Shown here: positions 882 to 12,524 of the stretch, piece by piece
How positions within the stretch are numbered: the first letter of the stretch is position 1
Layout of the letters: the number at the start of each line of letters is the position of its first letter
Source of the DNA: an uncultured Armatimonadia bacterium
GTDB taxonomy: Bacteria; Armatimonadota; Zipacnadia; Zipacnadales; JABUFB01
Direction: 5' to 3'
DNA length: 12,524 nucleotides
Assembly (NCBI GenBank): GCA_964423635.1
Contig: CAYRFY010000184.1
Coordinates: forward strand, 1-12,524
Notes under the pieces: model-generated
Databases searched by the model: none
Told to the model about the DNA's origin: nothing
What the model saw: the letters and a program-made list of their open reading frames with translations, nothing else
Translations under genes and position numbers: made by a program

Positions 882-1826
882 TCACGTGGCGCGAGACCAC
901 ACGTCTTTGTCGGTGAAGATCCGCCGGAGCGTGGTGAGTTCCCCGTGGTCGAGCCAGATGCCCTCGCAGATCCGGCAGCGGTCCACATAGCAGCTACCGT
1001 CTTCGGCATACGCGCGGCTGTCCATCTCGGTGTGGTCTACCGGACAGACGATCTCTCCCTCGCGGTCGGTATCCGGCATGCGAATCGCGGAGCTGAGTTG
1101 TCGCTCCCAGGCGTTGAGCCATTGCTGGGAGACGTCCATGAGCAGCGACAGCGCTCCGGTATCCATCCAGATGCCGCCGCAGGTGCTGCAGTGGTCCACG
1201 GCGGGGTCCTCGTCCAACGCTATGCCACATCCGGAGGCGGTTCGCGAGCTCAGGGGATTGTCGCAGCGCGGGCAGAGCATGGCTCCCCGCCGGTCCTGCA
1301 GGACGGCACCGCAGCCCCAGCAGGTGGGCGCCCCCACGTAGTTCTCCACACCACAATCCTGGCACGGGAACTTCTGGATCAAAGAGACCACGTGCCGCAG
1401 GCGCCGGCGACGGGAGGTCGGTAGCGTGGGTGTCGACGCCTCGGGCTGCGCTCCGGTGGCGGCGGGCCTCGCCGGGGTGAACCTGGCGGCGAGTGCCGCC
1501 AGCTCCCCGTCATCCACCCAGATACCCTTGCACTGCGGGCACGCGTCGAGCTTGATCTCCGGGGAGTGGGGGTACGAGAACTCGTACAGGGCCACGCCGC
1601 AGCGCGGGCAAGATGCATCTTCCCGCGCCGCCGGGGCCCCGGCAGGGCCGGGGACATACTCGGCCTCGGCCGACCCGGAGCCCGAGCCGCCGGAGCGGAT
1701 CACCTGCCTGAGTTCGTCGGCGTCGAACCAGATGCCCCCGCAGGCGTCGCAGCCGTCCAGTGCGACGGCGCCGATCCTCTCCTGTCGCAGGGGCACGCCC
1801 TCACCGCAGCGTGGGCAGTTGGCCAC
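882..1826 (-). CDS. Cys-rich tandem zinc-ribbon protein. It has four repeats of CPxC-x(12-20)-CxxCxGIWxDxxEL (zf-TFIIB-like, PF13453-type ribbon) plus a central CQDCG...CWGCG ribbon. No TM segment, so predicted cytoplasmic.
   Basis: GTG start at 1824-1826 (complement) with a GAGGGA SD about 8 nt upstream. The stop TGA is at 882-884. The four repeats read CPRCGEGV...CDACGGIWFDADEL, CPRCGVAL...CPQCKGIWVDDGEL, CPRCDNPL...CSTCGGIWMDTGAL and CPVDHTEM...CRICEGIWLDHGEL. Composition and codon bias are consistent with a coding region. Confidence 0.8.
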   Translation of the reverse strand: MANCPRCGEGVPLRQERIGAVALDGCDACGGIWFDADELRQVIRSGGSGSGSAEAEYVPGPAGAPAAREDASCPRCGVALYEFSYPHSPEIKLDACPQCKGIWVDDGELAALAARFTPARPAATGAQPEASTPTLPTSRRRRLRHVVSLIQKFPCQDCGVENYVGAPTCWGCGAVLQDRRGAMLCPRCDNPLSSRTASGCGIALDEDPAVDHCSTCGGIWMDTGALSLLMDVSQQWLNAWERQLSSAIRMPDTDREGEIVCPVDHTEMDSRAYAEDGSCYVDRCRICEGIWLDHGELTTLRRIFTDKDVWSRAT

Positions 1827-1889: not shown

Positions 1890-4778
1890 CTATCGCCGGC
1901 GCAGCACGAACACGCACCCCGACTCGATGTTCGGCACCTTCAGGATCGCCCGGCCCGCTTCCACCGTGCAGGCGAAGGGCTGCTCGCCCTCCGGGGTGAC
2001 CTCGAAGCATTCCACATCCTCAATGTAGTCCGGCAGCCCCACGGTGATCGAGACGTTCTTGGCCGGCTCGATCTCCGGCGGCTCCGGCTTGGAGGCCGGA
2101 ATGTGGTTGGCGGCGGTGACGACGATCGTGTCCGGTCCGCACAGCAGGCTGCTCACGGCCACCCGCGGCTTGGGCCAGGACTCATCACGGGCGACGCCCG
2201 TGGGCACCTCCCCGGCGTCGCAGGAGACCAAGTCCACCGGCGTGCCCAGGAGCAGATCGCCCTCGATGTGCTCGATCAGACGGTTGGTGGCGGCGATCTC
2301 GGCCGCAAACTCATCATTGAGCTGCCAGCCACCGGCGCCCGCCGAGTACACCCAGCTCGTCAGCCCCTTCATCCCACAGCCGATGGCCTGGACCACATTC
2401 TGCCGCCATTCGGCCGGCACCGGTCCCCGCGCACCCTTCGGCACTCCCTGACCGGTCTTCCAGCCGTACGCCTCCAGACAGGCGTACATGCGGTTCGGCG
2501 TGCCGCACAGCCGGGCGTAGGACAGGCTCTCACGCACGTAGGCGTGGTCGGCGCCGTAGTACGTCACGGGATACGGGTCGAAGCAGGCGATGTCGGCGAA
2601 GCGCCCGTATACGCACCAGTTCAGCGGTCGCACCGTGCCGTTCATCACGATCCACGAGGCGGCCTGCGGGGAGAACCGCTGCAGCAGCTCCTGCCAGCCG
2701 GACTGCGCCAGCCTCCGGGCATGGTAGCCCAGCCCTGTCGGGTAGCCACCGCCACGATTGTCGTGGGCGTCGGGCTCGTCGGGCCCCATCAGATACGCCA
2801 CCCGCGGGTGGAGGTCGAACATGCCGCCGGTGGCGCTGGTCAAAAGCCCGTACCGCTCGCAGACCTCCTGGGAGTGTGCGTGCCACATGGCCAGGTTCAT
2901 GTGCATCTGCTCGCACAGCTCGGGGGGCACGTGGATCGAGCTGCGCGGGAACAGCCAGGGCAGGACGCGGAACTGCGCCGCCACCTGCCTCCCGGAGCCG
3001 CTGGTGGCCGTCACCACATGGTACCCACCCGCCGTCAGCGGCGCCTCAAGTCTTGCCACGAGCAGCGCCACCCCGCCGGGGAAGTCGGCCCCGTAGCGAC
3101 GGACCTGCCTCAGCGGCTCGCCGTCCAGAGACAGTGCCTCGGCCGCCCGTATGCCCGGGGCATGCTGCCGCAGGTACACAAGCAGCGATTGCCCGTCCGG
3201 GCCGGTGGTCACATAGTCCACGGAGAGCTCCGCGGAGGCGTACGGAACGGTGGCCTCCGTCCTCGCGCCGCTTTCGGTCACCAGCGTCACTCGGGCCGCC
3301 TCGCCCTCCGGCCGGCGCCGGAAGCGCACCAGCACCTGGCCGCACTCCCCGGCCTCCAGCGTCCGCGGCCGCACTCGGTACCACACCACGCCCCGCGCGT
3401 CCCAGGCGTCGGAGACCAGATCCACATAGGTCTCATCAACCGGGACATCATTGAGCAGGAGGTCGGCGATGCGCACCGTCTGGGTCCCCGTATTTCGGAC
3501 GGCCAGGCGCAGAGAGCCGAAGTCCTCGTGCTCCTGATACAGCCGCTGCAGGCCCGCGAAGACGAGGCCCGTATCCTGCCCCTTCTGGCGGCCCTCCACG
3601 ACTTGCGACGCCGCCGGTGGGGCCGGGTCGGGCAGGTACTCGGCGGCCAGGACGGTGAGCTCCCGGCCGGGAGCCAGGTCCGGGCGCTCGGTCCAGGAGA
3701 TGTCGCCGCCGCCGGACAGCGCCACCGTCCGCAGGAGCAGTCTGCCCCCGCTCCGGGGCGCCACGCGCAGCTCGTGCACGCCGTCGGCGGGAGCCCTGCC
3801 TAGCTCTGAGAAGACGGTGCCACGGCGCTCGATGCCGGAGGCGGCGTCGAACGAAAGCACCTCCTCACCATCCCACAGCACCGCGCACTCTCGCGGCGAT
3901 TGCGGGTCGGATGAGAACTCCAACCGCACCATCAGCGGCCCCGACGCGCCCTGGGTCCGCACGAAGGTGGCAAGCGACAGGGGTGCCTGGCCCTCGCTGA
4001 GGTACTCCCTGCTCAGCGGGAACCCGCCGGTCTCGTTCAGTACCAACAGCGGGTTCTCGCCGGGGGGCGTGAGCCAGCCGTCGGCCTGCTCATAGTAGTG
4101 AGGGGCGCGCGCCCGTGGAGGGTCGGAGCAATCCAGCGCCGGGCTTCGCCAGCCCTGTGCGGAACGCAGTTGCGCCCATTGCGCCTTCAGCTCCGATTGC
4201 GGGTCCGCGGCCGCGAATAGCGCCTCGCCCGTCTGCAGCTCTACCCGCAGCTCATCGACGATGTTCGATACATACGTCTCCAGGCCGCTGTAGTTGTCCA
4301 ACACCAGGCGCAGCCATAGCTCACCGCCCCCCAACAGGCCCCCGGCCCGCTCCGTCTCCAGGGTCAGCGGCCCCGCCTGCCAGCCGTTGGCGTCGCCCTC
4401 CTGGCCCTTGCTGTCGGCCACCTGCTCCCAGTCCAGACCGTTGGCCGAGGCCCACAGCGTCGTCTGGCCGCCCAGGTGGCGGGCATTTGACCGCTGCGCG
4501 ACCCGTACGGACACTGCGGTGATCGCTCGCTCGCCGTGGAAGCGGTAAGTCAGCGTCCGGCGGCGGGCCGGGCCCTGTGTCTGCAGCGAGCCCGCCGTCC
4601 AGATTTCAGTCCCCGTATTGCTGAGGATCGCGTCGGTGAGGCATCTAGGGGTGGAGAAGTCGTCCTCGTAGACAAAGCTCCCCTCCTCATCGGGCCGGAT
4701 AGCGATGCCCGGCTCTGCGGCATGGCTGACCGGACTGAGCAGAAGCAGAAGAAGACCGACGGCCTGGCTTGCTCTCAT
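1890..4778 (-). CDS. Large secreted multidomain protein of about 962 aa with an N-terminal Sec signal peptide. The function is unresolved. Its C-terminal third is possibly a glycoside-hydrolase-like TIM-barrel region, and it has beta-sandwich-like N-terminal and C-terminal domains.
   Basis: The track ORF 1890..4883 was trimmed to an internal ATG at 4776-4778 (complement) that begins a classic signal peptide, MRASQAVGLLLLLLSPVSHA|AEP. The 35 codons upstream are Arg/Gly-rich and not protein-like. The stop TAG is at 1890-1892. Third-position GC bias is strong. The overlapping 745-aa plus-strand ORF is an antisense artefact. Confidence 0.8.
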   Translation of the reverse strand: MRASQAVGLLLLLLSPVSHAAEPGIAIRPDEEGSFVYEDDFSTPRCLTDAILSNTGTEIWTAGSLQTQGPARRRTLTYRFHGERAITAVSVRVAQRSNARHLGGQTTLWASANGLDWEQVADSKGQEGDANGWQAGPLTLETERAGGLLGGGELWLRLVLDNYSGLETYVSNIVDELRVELQTGEALFAAADPQSELKAQWAQLRSAQGWRSPALDCSDPPRARAPHYYEQADGWLTPPGENPLLVLNETGGFPLSREYLSEGQAPLSLATFVRTQGASGPLMVRLEFSSDPQSPRECAVLWDGEEVLSFDAASGIERRGTVFSELGRAPADGVHELRVAPRSGGRLLLRTVALSGGGDISWTERPDLAPGRELTVLAAEYLPDPAPPAASQVVEGRQKGQDTGLVFAGLQRLYQEHEDFGSLRLAVRNTGTQTVRIADLLLNDVPVDETYVDLVSDAWDARGVVWYRVRPRTLEAGECGQVLVRFRRRPEGEAARVTLVTESGARTEATVPYASAELSVDYVTTGPDGQSLLVYLRQHAPGIRAAEALSLDGEPLRQVRRYGADFPGGVALLVARLEAPLTAGGYHVVTATSGSGRQVAAQFRVLPWLFPRSSIHVPPELCEQMHMNLAMWHAHSQEVCERYGLLTSATGGMFDLHPRVAYLMGPDEPDAHDNRGGGYPTGLGYHARRLAQSGWQELLQRFSPQAASWIVMNGTVRPLNWCVYGRFADIACFDPYPVTYYGADHAYVRESLSYARLCGTPNRMYACLEAYGWKTGQGVPKGARGPVPAEWRQNVVQAIGCGMKGLTSWVYSAGAGGWQLNDEFAAEIAATNRLIEHIEGDLLLGTPVDLVSCDAGEVPTGVARDESWPKPRVAVSSLLCGPDTIVVTAANHIPASKPEPPEIEPAKNVSITVGLPDYIEDVECFEVTPEGEQPFACTVEAGRAILKVPNIESGCVFVLRRR
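4719..4778 (-). other. Signal peptide (about 20 aa, AXA-type cleavage after SHA) of the secreted protein.
   Basis: Basic N-terminus MRASQ, then a poly-Leu hydrophobic core, then SPVSHA-AEP. Confidence 0.6.
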
Positions 4779-4810
4779 AGCAAAGACCTCGCGGGACACG
4801 ATAGCACGAA

Positions 4811-4833
4811 GCCCCGGCGCACGGCACCGGGGC
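4811..4833 (-). other. GC hairpin (gccccgg, 9-nt loop, ccggggc) in the intergenic region between the kinase gene and the secreted-protein gene. It could be a kinase terminator or an attenuator-like element.
   Basis: The 7-bp perfect stem is read directly. On the minus strand it is followed by ttcgtgctat, which is only weakly T-rich, and it lies about 40 nt upstream of the secreted-protein start. Confidence 0.2.
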
Positions 4834-5149
4834 CTGCCAAAGAGCGTTCGCCCCCGGCCACCGCGACTCCTCCGCGGCGCCACGTCGGTGTCCGTCGGGG
4901 TCCGCCGAGCCTGTCGGCAAAGCCTGTGCGCCGCCTCGGATACGCGCCGGCGGGCGACGTCCCGCGGGTAAGCGCGTCCTCAGTGCGGCGGCAACACATT
5001 CACAGGATCATGACGACACTCTTCCTACGCGTTTCGAGCGATGGCAACGAGGCACGTAGGCGGCCCAATTGACTTAGCCGACCGGCTACGCCGTCGCCGG
5101 CGTCGCGCTGTGTGGCTTCGTGCGCCGCCGCGCGGCGCGGCCGCCGACG

Positions 5150-6811
5150 CTACTTGCCGGCCACCGCCTCCGTGATGGCTTCCACGAGCCGGGTCATGTC
5201 GAAGGGCTTGCGCAGCACTCCGCAGGCTCCGAGACGCTGAAGCTCCTCGTCGAGGCCCTCTTCGCCCCGGCCTGTGATGGCCAGGACCGGCGGGGGACTG
5301 CCCACGCGGCGGGCCCAGGCCAGCACATGCCTGCCGCCGCCGGCGGACATGCCGACATCTGTCACGACAAGGTCGAACTCCGCGGCCTGAAGCAGCGCCC
5401 AGGCCTGGTGAGCGTTGTCGGTGGACAGCGTGTGGAAGCCCGCCAGGCGGAGAATCCGAGTCACCGCATGCAGAAACTGCGGCTGGTCCTCCACAAGCAG
5501 TACCCGCAGCCCCGGGGGCGCCGCCTCAAGAGCCTGCAGCAGCGCCTCCTCGGCCTCGCCGGCCTGCACACATTCGCCGGTGCAGGCGGAGAACCGCAGT
5601 TCGAAGGTCGTCCCCGTCCCGAGCTCGCTATCCACCTCCAGGCTCCCCTGGTGCCGCAGGACGATGTCCCGCGAGACGGCCAGTCCGAGACCACTGCCCC
5701 CGACCGGCGTCGACTGGGCCTCTCCCTTGGTGGTGAAGTAGGGCGAGAACACTTGGGGCAGGTGCTCCGGCGCAATTCCGGTTCCGGTATCCGAGACGGC
5801 GACGACAACCTGCTCGCTCCCGTCGGGCGCCGTTTCGCGCCAACTCCGCACGTCCAGGATCCCGCCATCGGGCATGGCCTGACAGGCGTTGAGAAACAGG
5901 TTGAGGAACACTTGCTCCAGTTGCCCGCGGTCGCCCTCCACGAGGTTTTGGCGGCTTCCGGCGTCGCGCTGAATCGCGATACCCGTGTCGCGGGTGTGAT
6001 GGGCCGCCAAGGACAGCGCCGCATCCACGGCTTCGTCCAGGTCCAGGGGAACGCGCCGGGGCTCATCGGGCCGCGAGAAGGTGGTGATCTTGCGGCACAG
6101 ATCGCCGCCACGGGGAACCAGGTCACGGACGGTGTCCACCAGTTCCTCGTAAGCCTCCTGCGTCTGCACGTACCTGGTGAGGTCGGCTGTCATCACCAGG
6201 CCCGAAAGCAGGTTATTGAGCTCATGAGTCACGGCGGCCGCCAGGCGTCCCAGGGAGGCCTGACGCTGCAGGCTTTCCATCTGGTAGCGGGCGGTCACGT
6301 CGGTCAGCAGTACCGCAACCGCACCGTCGGCCAGGAGAAACGCGCGGGATCGGCACCACTTGCCTGTGCCAGAGAAGCGCAGCTCCGCCTCGGACGGACC
6401 TGGAGCCGACAGCGCCCGCATTACAAGGGCCGACAGCTCCTGGGCCTCCTCGCCGTACAGGTCCTCAATGCGCTTGCCCGCGGCGTCGGTGTCCAGCCGG
6501 CCGGTGAGGGCCTCCCAGGCCGAATTCCAGCCCTGCAGCACCAACTCGCCCGAGCCGGCGAAACTGCGCCCCGGAGCGAACTGAGCGTAGCCTTCATCTA
6601 TCATCGAAAGCAGCCAGGAGGCCTGCGGGAGCGCCCCCGACAGCCGCAACGGCGAAACTGTGCCGCCGGGCGAAGCCGAAGACCCGCCACCGGGCCCCCG
6701 CTTCCGATCGGCAAGCAGGCCCAACAGCGCCGCCAGCAGCGCGAATGCGGGCAGGGCCATATGCTCCGCTGTCGTGTAGCCCGCGGTACAATCCAGCGCA
6801 CTCATCATCAT
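5150..6811 (-). CDS. Hybrid sensor histidine kinase/response-regulator. Domain order is an N-terminal TM anchor, a PAS-like domain, HisKA (H-box AAAVTHELNNLLSGL), HATPase_c (N, G1 DTGTGI and G2 GSGLGLAV boxes), then a C-terminal REC domain (LLVED...DLVVTDVGM...LAITG...LRKPF).
   Basis: All canonical kinase and receiver motifs are read from the translation. The stop TAG is at 5150-5152. The track ORF start at 7018 was rejected because its first roughly 69 residues are Arg/Cys/Gly-rich junk. The start was placed at the ATG triplet MMM (6803-6811), immediately before the hydrophobic anchor MALPAFALLAALLGLL. An alternative start is the ATG at 6758-6760. Confidence 0.85.
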   Translation of the reverse strand: MMMSALDCTAGYTTAEHMALPAFALLAALLGLLADRKRGPGGGSSASPGGTVSPLRLSGALPQASWLLSMIDEGYAQFAPGRSFAGSGELVLQGWNSAWEALTGRLDTDAAGKRIEDLYGEEAQELSALVMRALSAPGPSEAELRFSGTGKWCRSRAFLLADGAVAVLLTDVTARYQMESLQRQASLGRLAAAVTHELNNLLSGLVMTADLTRYVQTQEAYEELVDTVRDLVPRGGDLCRKITTFSRPDEPRRVPLDLDEAVDAALSLAAHHTRDTGIAIQRDAGSRQNLVEGDRGQLEQVFLNLFLNACQAMPDGGILDVRSWRETAPDGSEQVVVAVSDTGTGIAPEHLPQVFSPYFTTKGEAQSTPVGGSGLGLAVSRDIVLRHQGSLEVDSELGTGTTFELRFSACTGECVQAGEAEEALLQALEAAPPGLRVLLVEDQPQFLHAVTRILRLAGFHTLSTDNAHQAWALLQAAEFDLVVTDVGMSAGGGRHVLAWARRVGSPPPVLAITGRGEEGLDEELQRLGACGVLRKPFDMTRLVEAITEAVAGK

Positions 6812-7163
6812 TGCCGTCCGTCCCCATCGTCTTGCGTAGTCGGCTCGCGGACAGGCCCGAGAAGCGCCGGGAGCGCTCCGCAGTGACCTGCCTCCATACC
6901 CTGCGCAGCAATTTCGTGCCAAAACGGGCTTCGCGGATTCCACCCGGCACCCAGGGCGTGTCGGGGAAGTCTCGTACGGGGGGGCGGCGCTCGCGACGTC
7001 GGCGCTCCCCGATGACATGAGCTGGGCCGGCCGAGCCTTTCGGCCGCACCCAAGGAACCGAACACTCCCGCCGCCTTCACAAGGGGCCCCCGCCGAACTA
7101 CAAGGAATACCGAGGACGCTATGCGCCGCTGCACACTTATCGGCCCTTGGTGGCGCGCAGGAC

Positions 7164-7194
7164 TTGTCTCTCGCGCGGCGAAACAGCCTATAGT
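7164..7194 (+). promoter_or_regulatory. Candidate sigma-70-type promoter for the PspA-like operon: -35 TTGTCT (7164-7169) and -10 TATAGT (7189-7194).
   Basis: An AT-rich TATAGT hexamer stands out in a roughly 70% GC background about 37 nt upstream of the ATG at 7231. The 19-bp spacer is longer than optimal. Confidence 0.25.
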
Positions 7195-7230
7195 CCGGGG
7201 TGCGGTCGGCACCGAACCATCAGCGGGGAC

Positions 7231-7821
7231 ATGCGAATGGATCGACTCAGGCGCCTGTGGCGTGCGCTGCTGCGGTTTCTCACCGGAGAGGATGAGCCGG
7301 TTGCCGTTCGCCCCGAGGCCGCCGAGCGCGAACTCAGCGCTCTGCGGAACATCGCCGCGCTAGCCGTGGCCCAGGCTCAGCGCGCCGAACTGGAGTTGCG
7401 CGAAGCGTTGGCCGACCCCTCAACGATGCCGGGCGAACTGGACAGTCTGATGCTCCAGCTCACGGAGCTGCGCGACCGCGCGCGCCGGGACGTCGTGGCC
7501 TACAGAGAGCATCAGCGCGGCGTGGCCGAGGCCCTGGAGCGTCTGGGGGAGGCGACCCGCGCCGCCGAGGTCGGTCGTCAGCGCGAGGAGATGCGGCGTT
7601 TCCTGGCCCGGTCTGAAGCGGCCATGGATCTCGAAGCTCTCCAGGCCATCGAGGACGAAGCCAGAGCCGAAGCCGCGCGCCTCGATTTCCTGCAGCAATT
7701 GGAGGCCGGTCACGATCCCGGAATCCACCGTCCCGAGCCCCGGGAACCCGGTGACCTCAGGCAGAGGGCACAGGCCCTCGTGGACCAGAGCGCCTTTTCT
7801 GACCTGCTGGGAAATGACTGA
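7231..7821 (+). CDS. PspA/IM30 (Vipp1)-like coiled-coil protein of about 196 aa. Family assignment is tentative.
   Basis: The N-terminus MRMDRLRRLWRALLRFLTGEDEP matches the PspA N-terminal amphipathic-helix pattern DRLxRxxRAxLxxLxxxAEDP as I recall it. The rest is an uninterrupted Ala/Glu/Arg/Leu-rich alpha-helical coiled coil. The track ORF began at a TTG at 7147, but I placed the start at the first ATG (7231). The ATG at 7237 is an alternative, since GGGGA lies at 7225-7229. The stop TGA is at 7819-7821. Confidence 0.6.
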   Translation: MRMDRLRRLWRALLRFLTGEDEPVAVRPEAAERELSALRNIAALAVAQAQRAELELREALADPSTMPGELDSLMLQLTELRDRARRDVVAYREHQRGVAEALERLGEATRAAEVGRQREEMRRFLARSEAAMDLEALQAIEDEARAEAARLDFLQQLEAGHDPGIHRPEPREPGDLRQRAQALVDQSAFSDLLGND

Positions 7822-7939
7822 ACGCCTCACGCCCGGACACACGGTCCGGTTCGGAAGCCGTGGCTAACGTTTGGCACGCGACGATCTACATAGCTGTTGG
7901 GACCCCGCTACTGACGGACGCGAAAGGGGGCTCTCTAGT

Positions 7940-8737
7940 ATGGACCTCTTGGCATGGTGGAACGTCGTCTTCGTCGTCCCCATCGGCCTGTCGGTGCTCT
8001 ACCTGATACTCAGCGCCACCGGCATGGGCGGCGACACCGGGCACGACCATGATCTCGAGACCCAGATGGACCACGACGTGGACCTCACCCATGATGTGGA
8101 CATGGACCACGACGTAGACATCGACCACGACGTGGACATGGATCATGACGTGGACGTCGACCACGACGTGGAGACGCTGCATGGCGTCGACGCGCACCAC
8201 ACGGTGGCCGCGGGCGATGCCCACGACTCGCTGGCTCATGACTTCCACCATGAGGCCGACACTCCCCTGTGGCTCCGGGCCCTGTCGGTGATCGGGTTCG
8301 GCAAGGTGCCGGTGTCGATCATCATGACGTGCCTCAGCGTCATCTTCGGTGTCGTCGGGCTGGCGGCCAACAGTCTCTTCGAGCACGGCCTGAGCGGGAA
8401 GCTGCCGCCCACGGTGTACTTCTGGCCCTCCTTCGCGCTGGCCGCCGTGGTCTCGCTGTCTTTCACCGGGAGCTTCGCTCGCCTGATGGCCCGCTACATG
8501 CCCACCAGCGAGACCTATGCCGAGACGCCCCAGGACTTGGTGGGGCGGCTGGGAACCGTGGTCTTCGCCCTGAGGGAGGGCGAGAAGGGTGTCGTGGACG
8601 TGAAGGATCACGGTGGCACCTGGCACCGTATTGCCGCTCAGCCTGTGTCCGGCGACATTCCCAAGGAGAGTGAGGTCATCGTGGTTCGTTACCACCGCGA
8701 CGGCGACTATTACGATGTGACGGTGTCGCCACTGTAG
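7940..8737 (+). CDS. NfeD-like (YqiJ/YuaF-type) membrane protein with three predicted TM helices and a C-terminal OB-fold beta-barrel. It carries an unusual His/Asp-rich repetitive loop between TM1 and TM2.
   Basis: The C-terminal sequence LVGRLGTVVFALREGEKGVVDVKDHGGTWHRIAAQP...EVIVVRYHRDGDYYDVTV fits the NfeD C-terminal OB-fold signature. The hydrophobic helices are LLAWWNVVFVVPIGLSVLYLILSA, LSVIGFGKVPVSIIMTCLSVIFGVVGLAA and FWPSFALAAVVSLSFTGSF. The ATG at 7940 is preceded by AAAGGGGG. The track's TTG at 7871 adds a non-protein-like leader. The stop TAG is at 8735-8737. The gene lies immediately upstream of a flotillin gene, which is the classic NfeD-SPFH pairing. Confidence 0.8.
   Translation: MDLLAWWNVVFVVPIGLSVLYLILSATGMGGDTGHDHDLETQMDHDVDLTHDVDMDHDVDIDHDVDMDHDVDVDHDVETLHGVDAHHTVAAGDAHDSLAHDFHHEADTPLWLRALSVIGFGKVPVSIIMTCLSVIFGVVGLAANSLFEHGLSGKLPPTVYFWPSFALAAVVSLSFTGSFARLMARYMPTSETYAETPQDLVGRLGTVVFALREGEKGVVDVKDHGGTWHRIAAQPVSGDIPKESEVIVVRYHRDGDYYDVTVSPL
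8065..8172 (+). repeat. Six copies of an 18-bp in-frame tandem repeat (consensus atggaccacgacgtggac) encoding (M/L/I/V)(D/T)HDVD x6 inside the NfeD-like gene.
   Basis: Read directly: atggaccacgacgtggac / ctcacccatgatgtggac / atggaccacgacgtagac / atcgaccacgacgtggac / atggatcatgacgtggac / gtcgaccacgacgtggag. Confidence 0.9.
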
Positions 8738-8888
8738 GCGTTCGCCGTCCTTCATCCCCGTCCTCGCGACCGCGGGCCTTCAGCCCGCAGGACGTAGGCC
8801 GGCCGTCGTCGCCGTTCCTTGCCCCACCCGGAAGTCCGGCGGGAATCCAGGTTCTCCGCCTTGTATCTTGCATATCTCACGCCGCAAT

Positions 8889-8895
8889 AGGAGGG
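8889..8895 (+). promoter_or_regulatory. Shine-Dalgarno AGGAGGG for the flotillin gene (7-nt spacer to the GTG at 8903).
   Basis: Read directly from aataggagggacagaccGTG. Confidence 0.55.
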
Positions 8896-8902
8896 ACAGA
8901 CC

Positions 8903-10819
8903 GTGGCACTGGCAATCGGCATGATCTTCGTCGGTGCGTTCCTGATCTTCTGGCCGGCCAGCGCGCTGCAGGGGCCGACCCAGGTGATCTTGATGACCGT
9001 CGGCGCGATTGTACTGCTCGTGGCCGCCGTGGTGGTCATCATCGCCAAGCTCTACCAGAGGGCCAGCGCCAACGAGGCCTTCGTCAAGACAGGCATGGGA
9101 GGGCCGAAAGTCGTACTGGACGGCGGCGCCATCGTCATCCCCGTCGTCCACAAGGTTGTCCCGGTGCGCCTGGAGACCATGAAGCTCGAGGTTGAGCGCG
9201 CGGGTGAGGATGCCTTGATCACCAAGGATAACCTGCGTTGTGACATCAGGGCCGAGTTCTACATCAAGGTACAGGCGGTCAAGGACGACATCCTCAACGC
9301 CTCCCGCTCCCTGGGCGGGCGCTCCATCGACGCCGGTGCCGTGCGCGACCTCGTCTTCGAGAAGCTCGTGTCCGCCCTGCGCTCCGTGGCCGCCACCCGT
9401 GACCTGTCCACTCTCCACACCGAGCGCGACGACTTCGCCAACGCCGTGTCGCAGCTCGTGCGCGAGGACCTCAAGTCCAACGGCCTCACCCTCGAGTCCG
9501 TGACCATCTCCCGTCTTGACCAGACGGACACCAAGCGCCTCAACGAGAACAACGTCTTCGACGCCCAGGGCCTGCGGAAGATCGCCGAGATCACTCAGAA
9601 GGCCCGGGTCGAGCGCAACCTCTACGAGCGAGACGCTGAACGGGCGATCGCCAATAAGGACGTGGAGACCCGCAAGCAAATCCTCGACCTGGACCTCGAT
9701 CAGGCCAATGCCGAGGCCACTCAGGCCGCCGAGGTGGCCAAGATCCGGGCCGAGCGCGAACAGGAGGCCGCGACGTATCAGATCGAGCAGCGCCGCCTGA
9801 TGGAGACGGCCGAGATCGACAAGGACCGCCAGGTGCAGCAGCGCGGCGTGGACCGCGACCTGCAGGTGGAGTCGGCCAAGGTCGAGGCCGAAAAGGCCCT
9901 CATCGCCAAGCAGCAGGAGCGCCAGACCACCGATATCGCCCGCAACCAGGCCATCGAAACCAAGGACGTCGAGCGCGTCAGGACCGTCGAGATCGCCAAG
10001 CGTGAGCAGTCCATCGCCGTGGCCGAGGCCGAGCAGCGCCGGGCCCTGGCCGAGCAGCAGCAGCTCACGGCCGAGGCCGAGCGCGAAGCCGCTCAGCAGG
10101 AGGTCATCACCGTCGAGCAGGTCGCCGAGGCCGACCGCACCAAGCGAGTGCAGGTCATCAGCGCCGAGCAGCAGGCGGAGCAGGAGAAGATCAAGCGGCA
10201 GATGGAAGCCGATATCGAGGCCTACCAGGCCGCAAAGATCGCCGAGGGTGAGCAGCAGGCCGCCGTCCAGATGGCCGTGGCGATCCGCACCAAGGCCGAG
10301 GCCGAAAAGGACGCCGCCACACTGCGCGCTACCGGTGAGCAGGCCCAGCAGATGGTGCCCGTCAACGTCACCCGTGAGCAGGTCTCCGTCGACGCCGCTC
10401 GCGTGCAGGATGTCGAAGCCGCCAGGGTCCAGGTACTCCGCAATGAGCTCTCAGCGAAGGCCGAGTACGAGCAGATCTCCGTCGAGCTGGAGAAGGCCCT
10501 CGCCGAGATCGAGGCCCGCAAGGAAGTGGGCGTCGCCTTCGCCAACAGCTTCGGGGACGCGTTCAGCAATGCCGACGTGGACCTCTACGGCTCGCCCGAG
10601 ACGCTGGCCACAGCCATGAGCGCCTTCGGCAAGGCCGCCGGCATCGGGGCCTTCATGGATGGTCTGAACCGGAGCATGCCGGACGAGACCATGTCCACCA
10701 TCCAGAGCCTCCTACAGCGACTGGCACCCGGCGTCGCCTCTGCCCCCACGCCGGCCACTGAGGAAGATAAGCCGGAGACCGACGAGCAGGCCGAGGACAC
10801 GCAGCCCGCACCGGAGTAG
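8903..10819 (+). CDS. Flotillin-like SPFH/Band-7 protein (YqiK/FloT family) of 638 aa. It has an N-terminal membrane anchor, an SPFH domain, then a long Glu/Ala/Gln-rich coiled coil and a C-terminal tail.
   Basis: The N-terminal block YQRASANEAFVKTGMGGPKVVLDGGAIVIPVVHKVVPVRLETMKLEVERAGEDALITKDNLRCDI closely parallels the conserved start of enterobacterial YqiK and Bacillus FloT flotillins. It is followed by EA-rich heptad repeats (AEAEQRRALAEQQQLTAEAEREAAQQE...). GTG start with a strong SD. The stop TAG is at 10817-10819. Confidence 0.9.
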   Translation: MALAIGMIFVGAFLIFWPASALQGPTQVILMTVGAIVLLVAAVVVIIAKLYQRASANEAFVKTGMGGPKVVLDGGAIVIPVVHKVVPVRLETMKLEVERAGEDALITKDNLRCDIRAEFYIKVQAVKDDILNASRSLGGRSIDAGAVRDLVFEKLVSALRSVAATRDLSTLHTERDDFANAVSQLVREDLKSNGLTLESVTISRLDQTDTKRLNENNVFDAQGLRKIAEITQKARVERNLYERDAERAIANKDVETRKQILDLDLDQANAEATQAAEVAKIRAEREQEAATYQIEQRRLMETAEIDKDRQVQQRGVDRDLQVESAKVEAEKALIAKQQERQTTDIARNQAIETKDVERVRTVEIAKREQSIAVAEAEQRRALAEQQQLTAEAEREAAQQEVITVEQVAEADRTKRVQVISAEQQAEQEKIKRQMEADIEAYQAAKIAEGEQQAAVQMAVAIRTKAEAEKDAATLRATGEQAQQMVPVNVTREQVSVDAARVQDVEAARVQVLRNELSAKAEYEQISVELEKALAEIEARKEVGVAFANSFGDAFSNADVDLYGSPETLATAMSAFGKAAGIGAFMDGLNRSMPDETMSTIQSLLQRLAPGVASAPTPATEEDKPETDEQAEDTQPAPE

Positions 10820-10851
10820 ACGCCGGCAGCGACGCCACCAGGCCACGATCG

Positions 10852-10885
10852 CGGCGACGGCTCCCTGCTACGGGAGCCGTCGCCG
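10852..10885 (+). terminator. Putative intrinsic terminator of the PspA-like/NfeD/flotillin operon. The stem cggcgacggctccc with loop tgcta and gggagccgtcgccg is followed by GTTCTTG.
   Basis: A 13 to 14-bp perfect GC-rich inverted repeat lies 33 nt after the flotillin stop codon. The T-tract is short (ttcttg), as is common in high-GC genomes. Confidence 0.45.
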
Positions 10886-11120
10886 GTTCTTGATAAACTG
10901 TGGGCTGTGTTGCAGGGGAAAGCCAATCGCCGTCGCCGTTGTCGTGGTCCCTCTCCCGCGGCTCGTATTCTGAGTGTCGGATGGGCCGGGAGAGAGGGCG
11001 CCGTCCCTGTCGTTTCCCAGCCTCTCCCCAGCCGCTCCCCTGCCTCAGTTGCCACCGCCCCTCGTCTCTGGTAAACTCGCCGGGCTGTCCTCGCACCGCC
11101 GCCGACCTGCTTTGGAGACC

Positions 11121-11126
11121 AGGAGA
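11121..11126 (+). promoter_or_regulatory. Shine-Dalgarno AGGAGA for the aminotransferase gene (7-nt spacer to the ATG at 11134).
   Basis: Read directly from ggagaccaggagatcgagttATG. Confidence 0.55.
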
Positions 11127-11133
11127 TCGAGTT

Positions 11134-12524
11134 ATGACCGCTGCCGCAGACCTCAGTTTCGCAGATCTGATGAACGACCATTCCGGAGAGATGGCCACCG
11201 CCATGCGGGCGGGCAGCGAGTATCTCACCTCCGGCTCCACAGCCGAGCTCCTGGCGCAGGTGGGGCGCACCGTGCCCTCCGTGCCCGCAGCGCGGTTCCC
11301 CGACAAGAGGTGGTTTCAGCTCTCGTACGGCCGCGAGGTCAATGACAGGCCCAACGAACTGCTGGTGGGCAAGGGACTCTTCTACCTTACCGAACAGGGC
11401 AGGCTCTATCTCGACTGCACCGGCGGGCACTACCAGATGACCTGGGGCTACGATCATCCGCAGTTGCACGCCCTGCTGCTGGACGGCATCCAGCGGGGCA
11501 TCGTCTGGGACAATCACAGCAACATCCCCTCGGCGCCGGTCAAACGCCTGGCCCAGAAGCTGGTGGAGGTCGCCAATCCGGGGGCTGATATGCGCCTCGT
11601 TCAGACCGATGGTGACAGGCTCAATACGGTACTGCTCGGTACCGCCACCGGCACCGTGGCCTGCGCCGCCGCCATGAAGATCCAACTCCTGCACTATTCC
11701 CGTGTCAAGCCCAATCAGGGCGCGCCGGTCTTCGTGGTCCTGGACGGCAACTACCACGGCACCGACATGTTCGCTCAGCACCTGCGGGGCATGTGGCCGG
11801 GGTTGTTTGCCAATGTGCGGATCGTCACCGTGGAGCCCAATGACCCGGAAGAGCTCCGGCAGGCCGTCGCCACACACGGCCGACGCATCGCCGGTTTCTG
11901 GGCCGAGCCGATCATGATGAACCGCGAGGCCATCGAGGTGCAGCCCGAGTATTTGCGCCTCGCTCGCGAGCTGTGCGATGAGACCGGCGCGCTCATGGCC
12001 ATCGACGAGATCCAGACGGGCTTTTGGTACCCCGAGGTCTTCTACACCAAGCGCCTCGGCATCGAGCCAGATTTCATCGTCCTGGGCAAAGGCCTCACCG
12101 CCGGCCTGCACCCGCTCTCGGCCCTCCTCTACCGGGGCAAGCTGGACATCCTGGAGCAATATGACGCCATCAGCACCAATGGCAATGCGGCCCTGGCCGC
12201 GTACGTGGCTCTCGGATGCATCGAGCTGATCCAGCGCAACGCACAGCACATCGGGCAGATGGGGGAGAGGTTCCATACGGGGATGCGGGCTCTGGCGGCG
12301 AGATTCCCGGAGTTGCTGGTCGAGGCCCGGGGCGTCGGACACTTGTCGGGCCTCAAGTTCCAAAGCCGCGAGGACGCCCTGGGCTTCCACCGCCAGATCG
12401 TGGAGGAGGGCTACTGGCTCCGGGCCCATGCCTATCACGAGGGGCACAGCACGATCCTTACCAAGTTCGCCCTCCCGATGGACGAAGAAGTGGCCGACCA
12501 TACGCTGGCCAAGATCGGGAGCGT
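11134..12524 (+). CDS. Class-III pyridoxal-phosphate-dependent aminotransferase (acetylornithine/GABA/omega-transaminase family). The 3' end is truncated by the window edge (463 codons or more, no stop seen).
   Basis: The ORF is open from the ATG at 11134 to the window end, with strong G/C third-position bias. The class-III signature DEIQTGF is at about residue 291 and the PLP-lysine motif VLGKGLTAG at about residue 319. The N-terminal glycine-rich substrate-loop pattern is LYLDCTGGHYQMTWGYDHPQL. It is absent from the ORF track, apparently because the track lists only stop-terminated ORFs. The 638-aa minus-strand ORF 10585..12501 that overlaps it is its antisense shadow. Confidence 0.85.
   Translation, partial: MTAAADLSFADLMNDHSGEMATAMRAGSEYLTSGSTAELLAQVGRTVPSVPAARFPDKRWFQLSYGREVNDRPNELLVGKGLFYLTEQGRLYLDCTGGHYQMTWGYDHPQLHALLLDGIQRGIVWDNHSNIPSAPVKRLAQKLVEVANPGADMRLVQTDGDRLNTVLLGTATGTVACAAAMKIQLLHYSRVKPNQGAPVFVVLDGNYHGTDMFAQHLRGMWPGLFANVRIVTVEPNDPEELRQAVATHGRRIAGFWAEPIMMNREAIEVQPEYLRLARELCDETGALMAIDEIQTGFWYPEVFYTKRLGIEPDFIVLGKGLTAGLHPLSALLYRGKLDILEQYDAISTNGNAALAAYVALGCIELIQRNAQHIGQMGERFHTGMRALAARFPELLVEARGVGHLSGLKFQSREDALGFHRQIVEEGYWLRAHAYHEGHSTILTKFALPMDEEVADHTLAKIGS

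Follow-up and report, generated by a model that had tools for sequence, protein, structure and literature searches.

A clade-specific first gene beside a YqiJ/NfeD-flotillin pair in Armatimonadota and its possible relation to PspA and ESCRT-III

Described flotillin and PspA loci, and the present locus

The yqiJ-yqiK locus of Escherichia coli, which is equivalent to yuaF-floT of Bacillus subtilis, consists of a flotillin gene preceded by the gene for its membrane partner. The OB-like domain of NfeD binds the flotillin coiled coil and stabilises flotillin oligomers (2024 study, PMC11222466). A related locus with one additional gene is described here from an uncultured Armatimonadia bacterium (contig CAYRFY010000184.1). 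The whole stretch of DNA that was analysed comprises 12,524 nucleotides, has a G+C content of ∼68% and is termed the window. On its plus strand, between positions 7164 and 10885, there are three co-directional open reading frames (ORFs), as an initial annotation made from the sequence had proposed: gene 1 (7237-7821), gene 2 (7940-8737) and gene 3 (8903-10819). The features of the locus are as follows.

7164-7194, plus strand: promoter-like element read from the sequence, with TTGTCT (−35-like, 7164-7169), a 19-nt spacer and TATAGT (−10-like, 7189-7194)
7237-7821, plus strand: gene 1, soluble all-helical protein of 194 amino acids (aa), orphan family
7940-8737, plus strand: gene 2, YqiJ/NfeD-type membrane protein of 265 aa (YqiJ_N match, BLASTP and hydropathy)
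8069-8172, plus strand: tandem repeat of an 18-bp unit inside gene 2, 5.8 copies with 76% matches (Tandem Repeats Finder and translation)
8903-10819, plus strand: gene 3, YqiK-type flotillin of 638 aa (Band_7 match and identity with YqiK)
10852-10885, plus strand: intrinsic-terminator-like hairpin with a 14-bp stem (12 G-C pairs) and a 6-nt loop, followed by GTTCTTG

Genes 2 and 3 are homologous to yqiJ and yqiK and are found in the same order, with the membrane partner first, so that the NfeD-flotillin pair of the yqiJ-yqiK kind named in the initial annotation is confirmed. The Armatimonadia locus differs from that of E. coli in its extra first gene, in a long His/Asp-rich repeat loop that gene 2 carries relative to YqiJ, and in the length of gene 3, whose product is 85 aa longer than YqiK.

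Flotillin-type genes are also found next to pspA. Band-7 proteins adjoin pspA in several phyla. For Acidobacteriota, band7_Flot was recorded beside 11 of 19 PspAs, and NfeD is an additional partner there (Popp et al., 2022, PMC9239133). Operons that join a CesT/Tir-PspA unit, a transmembrane band-7-flotillin, an AAA+ ATPase and a YqiJ/YuaF protein have been described, and abbreviated operons without PspA are widespread (Ravi et al., 2024, PMC11237479). YdjI, an SPFH protein of B. subtilis, acts with YdjG/H to place PspA at the membrane (Scholz et al., 2021, PMC8581546). Given these three reports, the association of PspA with flotillin and NfeD is a published theme, and not the little-annotated linkage that was first supposed.

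The CesT/Tir-PspA operons and the Acidobacteriota loci likewise combine a PspA-type protein with a flotillin and a YqiJ/NfeD protein, whereas the present locus is without the CesT/Tir chaperone, AAA+ ATPase and phospholipase D genes. The B. subtilis pspA-ydjGHI (samGHI) operon is comparable in that a gene for a PspA-type protein comes first, followed by genes for membrane proteins and an SPFH protein. However, YdjI is a soluble SPFH protein, in contrast to the membrane-anchored flotillin of gene 3; neither YdjG, with zinc ribbons, nor YdjH, with a TPM domain, is of the NfeD/YqiJ type; and the B. subtilis PspA is canonical. With PspA/Vipp1 (IM30) itself, the gene 1 protein has in common an N-terminal amphipathic helix, a predicted hairpin followed by further helices, a length in the range of ∼190-220 aa and its best structural matches in the PDB. 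It departs from PspA/Vipp1 in that only a loose D/E-P is left of the KAEDP junction and the other conserved PspA motifs cannot be recognised.

Gene 1 is strictly linked to a YqiJ/NfeD-flotillin pair

Gene 1 starts at 7237, as every homologue begins at the corresponding MDRL/MxxL position; the ATG at 7231 that had been assigned as the start is two codons 5′ of the one used by the homologues. The reading frame has a coding-like G+C distribution by codon position, and comparison with the orthologue at the closely related locus L001 (loci of the survey below carry L numbers) revealed 37 synonymous and 23 non-synonymous codon changes. Because of this coding-type G+C pattern and the excess of synonymous changes, gene 1 is considered to be a real gene. 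Its product has no transmembrane segment. A word-indexed protein search recovered 13 relatives, none of them annotated. When 1.84 billion representatives were searched exhaustively with a family profile (HMMER), the family amounted to 29 clusters, all with proteins of ∼190 aa. Matches within the family across loci have E values of 1e-48 to 1e-70. The possibility that gene 1 arose from the flotillin coiled coil, by fragmentation or duplication, was considered and rejected (BLASTP E≥0.17), as was a role in anti-phage defence (no PADLOC matches).

The distribution of the trio was surveyed by scanning one genome per species with a flotillin alignment, which recovered 71 loci. These are nearly all from Armatimonadota, with Meiothermus/Calidithermus in addition. 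The best match is from an uncultured Armatimonadia metagenome-assembled genome (97% identity), and many others are from Candidatus Zipacnadia, a class of Armatimonadota. Wherever a related locus has upstream sequence, a YqiJ-like gene directly precedes that for the flotillin. Within the clade defined by flotillins with at least 67% identity to that of the window (67-97% across the gene 1 clade), gene 1 in turn directly precedes the YqiJ-flotillin pair in each of the 20 loci that have enough upstream sequence. Contigs with distant gene 1 homologues (∼40% identity) all hold the trio, and the flanking genes there are unrelated. Gene 1 diverges faster than its flotillin partner, ∼40% identity compared with ∼70%.

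All loci with flotillins of 44-50% identity display the two-gene pair only: gene 1 is absent, there is no conserved upstream partner, and no PspA is found within 6 kb. In these loci the genes of the pair share 4 bp or are separated by 3 bp. As gene 1 is present in these 20 loci of the clade with at least 67% identity and absent from those at 44-50%, the YqiJ-flotillin pair is regarded as ancestral, with gene 1 a later addition by one clade of Armatimonadota. Judged by these comparisons, the locus represents a real, conserved trio in which a standard NfeD/YqiJ-flotillin pair is preceded by a lineage-specific gene of an orphan family. In five loci without gene 1 (L037, L038, L040, L043 and L082), a conserved minus-strand ORF of ∼175 aa is divergently placed just upstream of the pair; by eye it looks like an Hsp20/alpha-crystallin small heat-shock protein.

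Gene 2, whose ATG is preceded by GAAAGGGGG, encodes a protein with an N-terminal transmembrane segment, a His/Asp-rich loop, more transmembrane segments and a C-terminal soluble domain. It matches YqiJ_N of Pfam at 30.4 bits, above the cut-off of 23, and aligns with E. coli YqiJ over residues 113-264, a stretch that includes the region Pfam names YqiJ_OB (BLASTP E=1e-7); it is therefore assigned as the YqiJ/NfeD-type flotillin partner. The C-terminal soluble domain is probably an OB-fold by homology. Relatives of gene 2 match YqiJ_OB weakly (E=0.01-0.09), and the NfeD C-terminal domain scores 13.7 bits on gene 2, below its cut-off of 29.1. Thus, of the NfeD-type OB-fold membrane protein first proposed, the YqiJ/NfeD type is retained, but a match to the NfeD C-terminal domain is not. 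The tandem repeat at 8069-8172 encodes the HDVDxD repeats of the His/Asp-rich loop, which follows the first transmembrane segment and may bind metal.

Gene 3 begins with a GTG codon that has AGGAGG 8 nt upstream. The translated sequence displays an N-terminal hydrophobic anchor (residues 1-56 are hydrophobic), an SPFH/Band_7 domain, a long Glu/Ala-rich coiled coil and an acidic tail. The match to Band_7 is 72.9 bits against a cut-off of 23.6, and there is 37% identity to E. coli YqiK over 449 aa that include the coiled coil (E=1e-78). The score against the FloT equivalog (NF058507), 36.3 bits, is far under its cut-off of 700. Of the two alternatives in the original label of YqiK/FloT-type flotillin, the sequence matches thus point to the YqiK-like one, and not to a FloT orthologue.

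The promoter-like element, whose TATAGT had been put forward as the −10 of a candidate promoter, is ∼42 nt 5′ of the gene 1 ATG. It was not called by the consensus scan because its 19-nt spacer is beyond the 16-18 nt to which the scan is limited, but the TTGTCT...TATAGT block is invariant among close relatives. In most of the distant relatives the equivalent is GTTTG-N17-18-GGGTATATT, found ∼40-50 nt 5′ of the gene 1 ATG. At L005 and L023-L036 a strongly conserved GATTTCCGTTTG-N17-18-GGGTATATT is followed by AAGAGGGTGTACAG..AATATG at this same distance from gene 1. The GATTTCCGTTTG/GGGTATATT motif looks like an extended −10 promoter with a conserved leader and a ribosome-binding site, and it is a possible promoter model for this uncultured class.

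Gaps of 118 bp (genes 1 and 2) and 165 bp (genes 2 and 3) separate the ORFs, which is not especially short, contrary to the description first given; the corresponding gaps in relatives are 38-121 bp and 39-285 bp. Consensus and terminator scans of the sequence between the three genes called no internal terminator and no sigma-70-like site, although gaps of 118 and 165 bp could conceal internal promoters. The strong hairpin terminator of the initial annotation was found at 10852-10885, with a predicted energy of −34.8 kcal/mol (RNAfold); it is the sole plus-strand terminator-like site within 6900-11200. Of 19 related loci, 18 have a comparable strong GC-rich hairpin 3′ of the flotillin stop codon. 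The promoter-like motif, the lack of an internal terminator in the scans and the terminal hairpin support, without proving, one transcription unit for the trio, and from these elements we infer co-transcription.

The hairpins of some of these loci are also alike in sequence. At L005, L023, L024, L027-L033 and L035 the hairpin is 2-44 nt past the flotillin stop codon and has nearly identical stems (GGGGGACGCG ... CGCGTCCCCC), despite an identity of only ∼70% between the proteins of these flotillin loci. The GGGGGACGCG/CGCGTCCCCC stem may represent either a terminator that has been conserved or a repeat element spread through the genome.

Gene 1 and the PspA/Vipp1/ESCRT-III superfamily

The reading of gene 1 as a PspA/ESCRT-III relative draws on its N-terminus and on its predicted fold. 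An AlphaFold model built from 34 sequences, with a mean predicted local distance difference test (pLDDT) score of 82.9, has helices at residues 2-16, 26-59, 65-156 and 172-183. In this layout an amphipathic helix at the N-terminus precedes a helical hairpin, whose arms are 26-59 and 65-156, and a short helix follows towards the C-terminus. This model superseded a first one (14 sequences, pLDDT 76.7). Within the long helix is a glycine, G106 in the numbering of alignment A1, that is invariant in the family and might signal a break of the alpha2/alpha3 type.

The N-terminal amphipathic helix, a hallmark of PspA, is present in gene 1, and residues 2-16 are helical in both models. In the family the motif is MGxxSWLRRxVADFF, which in the window reads MDRLRRLWRALLRFL. 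The helix formed by this sequence is cationic and amphipathic, with a hydrophobic moment of 0.87 and a net charge of +4, and the amphipathicity is kept in most members of the family. The N-terminus aligns in register with alpha0 of PspA/Vipp1 (MGIFSRF.../MGLFDRL...). In profile-profile comparison with hhalign, the score of the gene 1 family against PspA/Vipp1, 19.0, is higher than those of all 60 block shuffles (mean 13.3, standard deviation 1.9).

The better model was compared by Foldseek with 350,542 PDB chains. Ranks 1-7 are all Vipp1, PspA or ESCRT-III proteins, CHMP1B and Loki CHMP4-7 among them, and so are 13 of the top 20, with full-length alignments. The best E value, 0.043, is that of 6zvr (probability 0.89), and 9eom is matched with template modelling (TM) scores of 0.56/0.51 over 212 columns (probability 0.95). 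Structure prediction, which the initial annotation had suggested as a check for the ESCRT-III hairpin fold, gave a helical hairpin with seven leading matches from the ESCRT-III superfamily, none of them at an E value below 0.043. An ESCRT-III/PspA-type fold for gene 1 is described here as plausible, at about an even chance.

A number of results weigh against a relation to PspA/ESCRT-III. The E values of the top seven structural matches are marginal (0.04-0.3) and no PDB match was found at E≤0.001; all-helical folds are poorly discriminated by structure search; and F-BAR domains ranked top with the first, lower-confidence model. The first hairpin arm has ∼34 residues, which is ∼22 shorter than the ∼56 of PspA/Vipp1, and neither the hairpin tip nor alpha4 displays a recognisable form of the PspA motifs. 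Sequence searches give a similar picture. The protein has no PspA_IM30 (PF04012) or Snf7 match in Pfam at E≤1, and none of 34 family members matches either profile even at E≤10, a setting at which the HMMER speed filters discard most matches above E of ∼0.1, so that very weak PF04012 or Snf7 matches would go unlisted. The initial annotation had assigned gene 1 as IM30/PspA-like and had named the lack of a PF04012 or Snf7 match as grounds for giving that up; the assignment is not upheld by these searches. There is likewise no match in NCBIfam, nothing relevant was retrieved from the PDB by sequence with the single protein or with family profiles, and the exhaustive HMMER search returned nothing outside the 29 clusters of the family itself.

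The hhalign comparisons with PspA/Vipp1 profiles gave P=0.055 (9 sequences) and P=0.029 (61 sequences), with a probability of 1-2%, and the alignment, although in register, spans the N-terminal ∼50-59 columns only. Past residue ∼67 the alignment has near-zero confidence and was not used; the global mode of hhalign was uninformative. The PspA profile used is thin and mainly proteobacterial. A protein-index search with E. coli PspA listed matches that are all at least 86% identical, nearly all of them named enterobacterial PspA, and tblastn of PspA against plasmids gave almost exclusively Enterobacterales. Scans of viral and metagenome contigs added 8 and 80 PspA loci, respectively, and the profile stayed thin because the metagenome set is all 48-100% identical to E. 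coli PspA. Membership of gene 1 in the PspA family is not demonstrated, and it cannot be shown by sequence.

With the evidence for and against taken together, the proposal that gene 1 encodes a shortened and highly diverged peripheral membrane protein of PspA/ESCRT-III type, which works with the flotillin scaffold, is the most likely reading, at about even odds. Put in terms of families, gene 1 might with the same even likelihood found a miniaturised branch of PspA/Vipp1/ESCRT-III that escapes current hidden Markov models (HMMs) and is fixed in association with a membrane-anchored flotillin and the NfeD partner of that flotillin. Linkage, operon signals and precedent were also counted in favour. 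Gene 1 is kept beside the pair while its identity falls to ∼40% and the flanks differ; the promoter-like motif and the terminal hairpin of the trio are conserved; and the genomic and functional coupling of PspA with SPFH/flotillin and NfeD/YqiJ proteins in other phyla provides a precedent.

[quoted passage not shown] The gene 1 protein would bind the inner leaflet by means of helix alpha0 and might oligomerise through its hairpin. The scaffold would then recruit or organise the gene 1 protein and so stabilise a stressed membrane. This would have its analogue in B. subtilis, where the SPFH protein YdjI, with YdjG/H, brings PspA to the membrane. Homology to PspA/ESCRT-III, oligomerisation, interaction with the scaffold and a function in stress are all steps that we infer.

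Alternative explanations and the neighbouring genes

Gene 1 may instead encode a lineage-specific coiled-coil protein that assists or regulates the flotillin-NfeD scaffold, such as a cap, an adaptor or a client-recruiting factor, and that is unrelated to PspA/ESCRT-III. The resemblance to PspA would then be that of a generic helical hairpin with an amphipathic membrane anchor. This explanation is the main rival, somewhat less likely than the PspA/ESCRT-III reading. The top seven structural matches for the better model are, however, all from the ESCRT-III superfamily and not a mixture of coiled coils; the register of the N-terminal helix with PspA alpha0, above shuffled controls, and a helix number and order that fit the alpha0-alpha5 layout also count against it. 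Another suggestion is that gene 1 has no functional tie to the flotillin pair, or that its reading frame is spurious and owed to the high G+C content of the genome. High-GC DNA does yield many long spurious ORFs in the window, and gene 1 is without database annotation. Nevertheless this seems very improbable, as the family is conserved across loci at the E values given above, with a conserved start codon, ribosome-binding site and promoter-like motif. Codon-position G+C and the excess of synonymous changes are those of a coding sequence, and gene 1 keeps a constant position in 20 of 20 loci despite differing flanks.

A third explanation extends the locus upstream. The divergent ORF at 5150-7018 encodes a PAS-HisKA-HATPase-REC hybrid histidine kinase (gene calls in relatives imply a start near 6811, for a protein of 553 aa), and kinase and gene 1 diverge across a common intergenic region of ∼425 bp. 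The initial annotation had joined kinase and operon into one envelope-integrity locus, in which the kinase would sense membrane stress and control a bona fide PspA-NfeD-flotillin unit, and PspA genes do sometimes adjoin histidine kinases in other phyla (PMC9239133). However, a kinase adjoins gene 1 in the closest relatives alone (L001-L004 and L020); none of 17 more distant gene 1 loci has one beside it, and two of these 17 (L027 and L035) have <500 bp of upstream sequence. The upstream neighbours in the distant loci are unrelated, for example HEAT-repeat, URO-D-like and nucleoside hydrolase proteins, and the window contains no DNA-binding response regulator. At L029 a kinase-like ORF is found >6 kb downstream. 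Because adjacency is confined to the closest relatives, an envelope-integrity locus that includes the kinase is unsupported. The comparative data already largely refute it, and it is considered quite unlikely.

Other genes of the window are found on both sides of the trio. At 92-481 and 478-825 on the minus strand there are tandem paralogous small genes that overlap by 4 bp and encode proteins of 129 and 115 aa. Each product has an N-terminal transmembrane segment and the two have a coiled-coil motif in common (LLSAHLTAILERLNSIE.RL), with no Pfam family; counterparts are present in the close relatives L001-L004. The ORF at 882-1826 (minus strand) encodes a 314-aa protein with four Zn_ribbon_TFIIB (PF13453) repeats (E=5.5e-37). 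A zinc-ribbon protein, YdjG, accompanies PspA in B. subtilis (PMC9239133, PMC11237479). The gene at 882-1826 was left unlinked to the operon because it lies on the opposite strand at a distance of 5 kb and its conservation is limited to close relatives.

The large minus-strand ORF at 1890-4883 encodes 997 aa (962 aa in the gene calls of relatives) and is without a match in Pfam or NCBIfam; the N-terminus of the product is hydrophobic and resembles a signal peptide. Downstream of the trio, a separate sigma-70-like promoter match at 11049-11077 on the plus strand (TTGCCA-17-TAAACT, with TG upstream) precedes a class-III aminotransferase gene at 11134-12524 (plus strand) that runs off the end of the window. 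This gene is downstream of the flotillin gene in close relatives and not in distant ones. Rfam and tRNA scans of the window found none.

Whichever explanation of gene 1 holds, known biology is refined rather than a new kind of system added, as the locus is a lineage-specific variant of a known theme. Should gene 1 not be a PspA relative, it would still be a compact and strictly linked accessory subunit, useful for dissecting how flotillin assembly is regulated in bacteria. If it is a true ESCRT-III/PspA relative, it would extend the superfamily to a very short, sequence-divergent form. Surveys based on HMMs would score such loci as plain NfeD-flotillin pairs and tally them among the 'abbreviated' two-gene operons, because their HMMs miss gene 1; the coupling of PspA to flotillins would then be under-counted. 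The trio would also represent another, independently arranged PspA-SPFH wiring and would back the view that flotillins recruit membrane-repair polymers. In Armatimonadota, the flotillin scaffold would then be a dedicated membrane receptor or nucleator for an ESCRT-III-like polymer.

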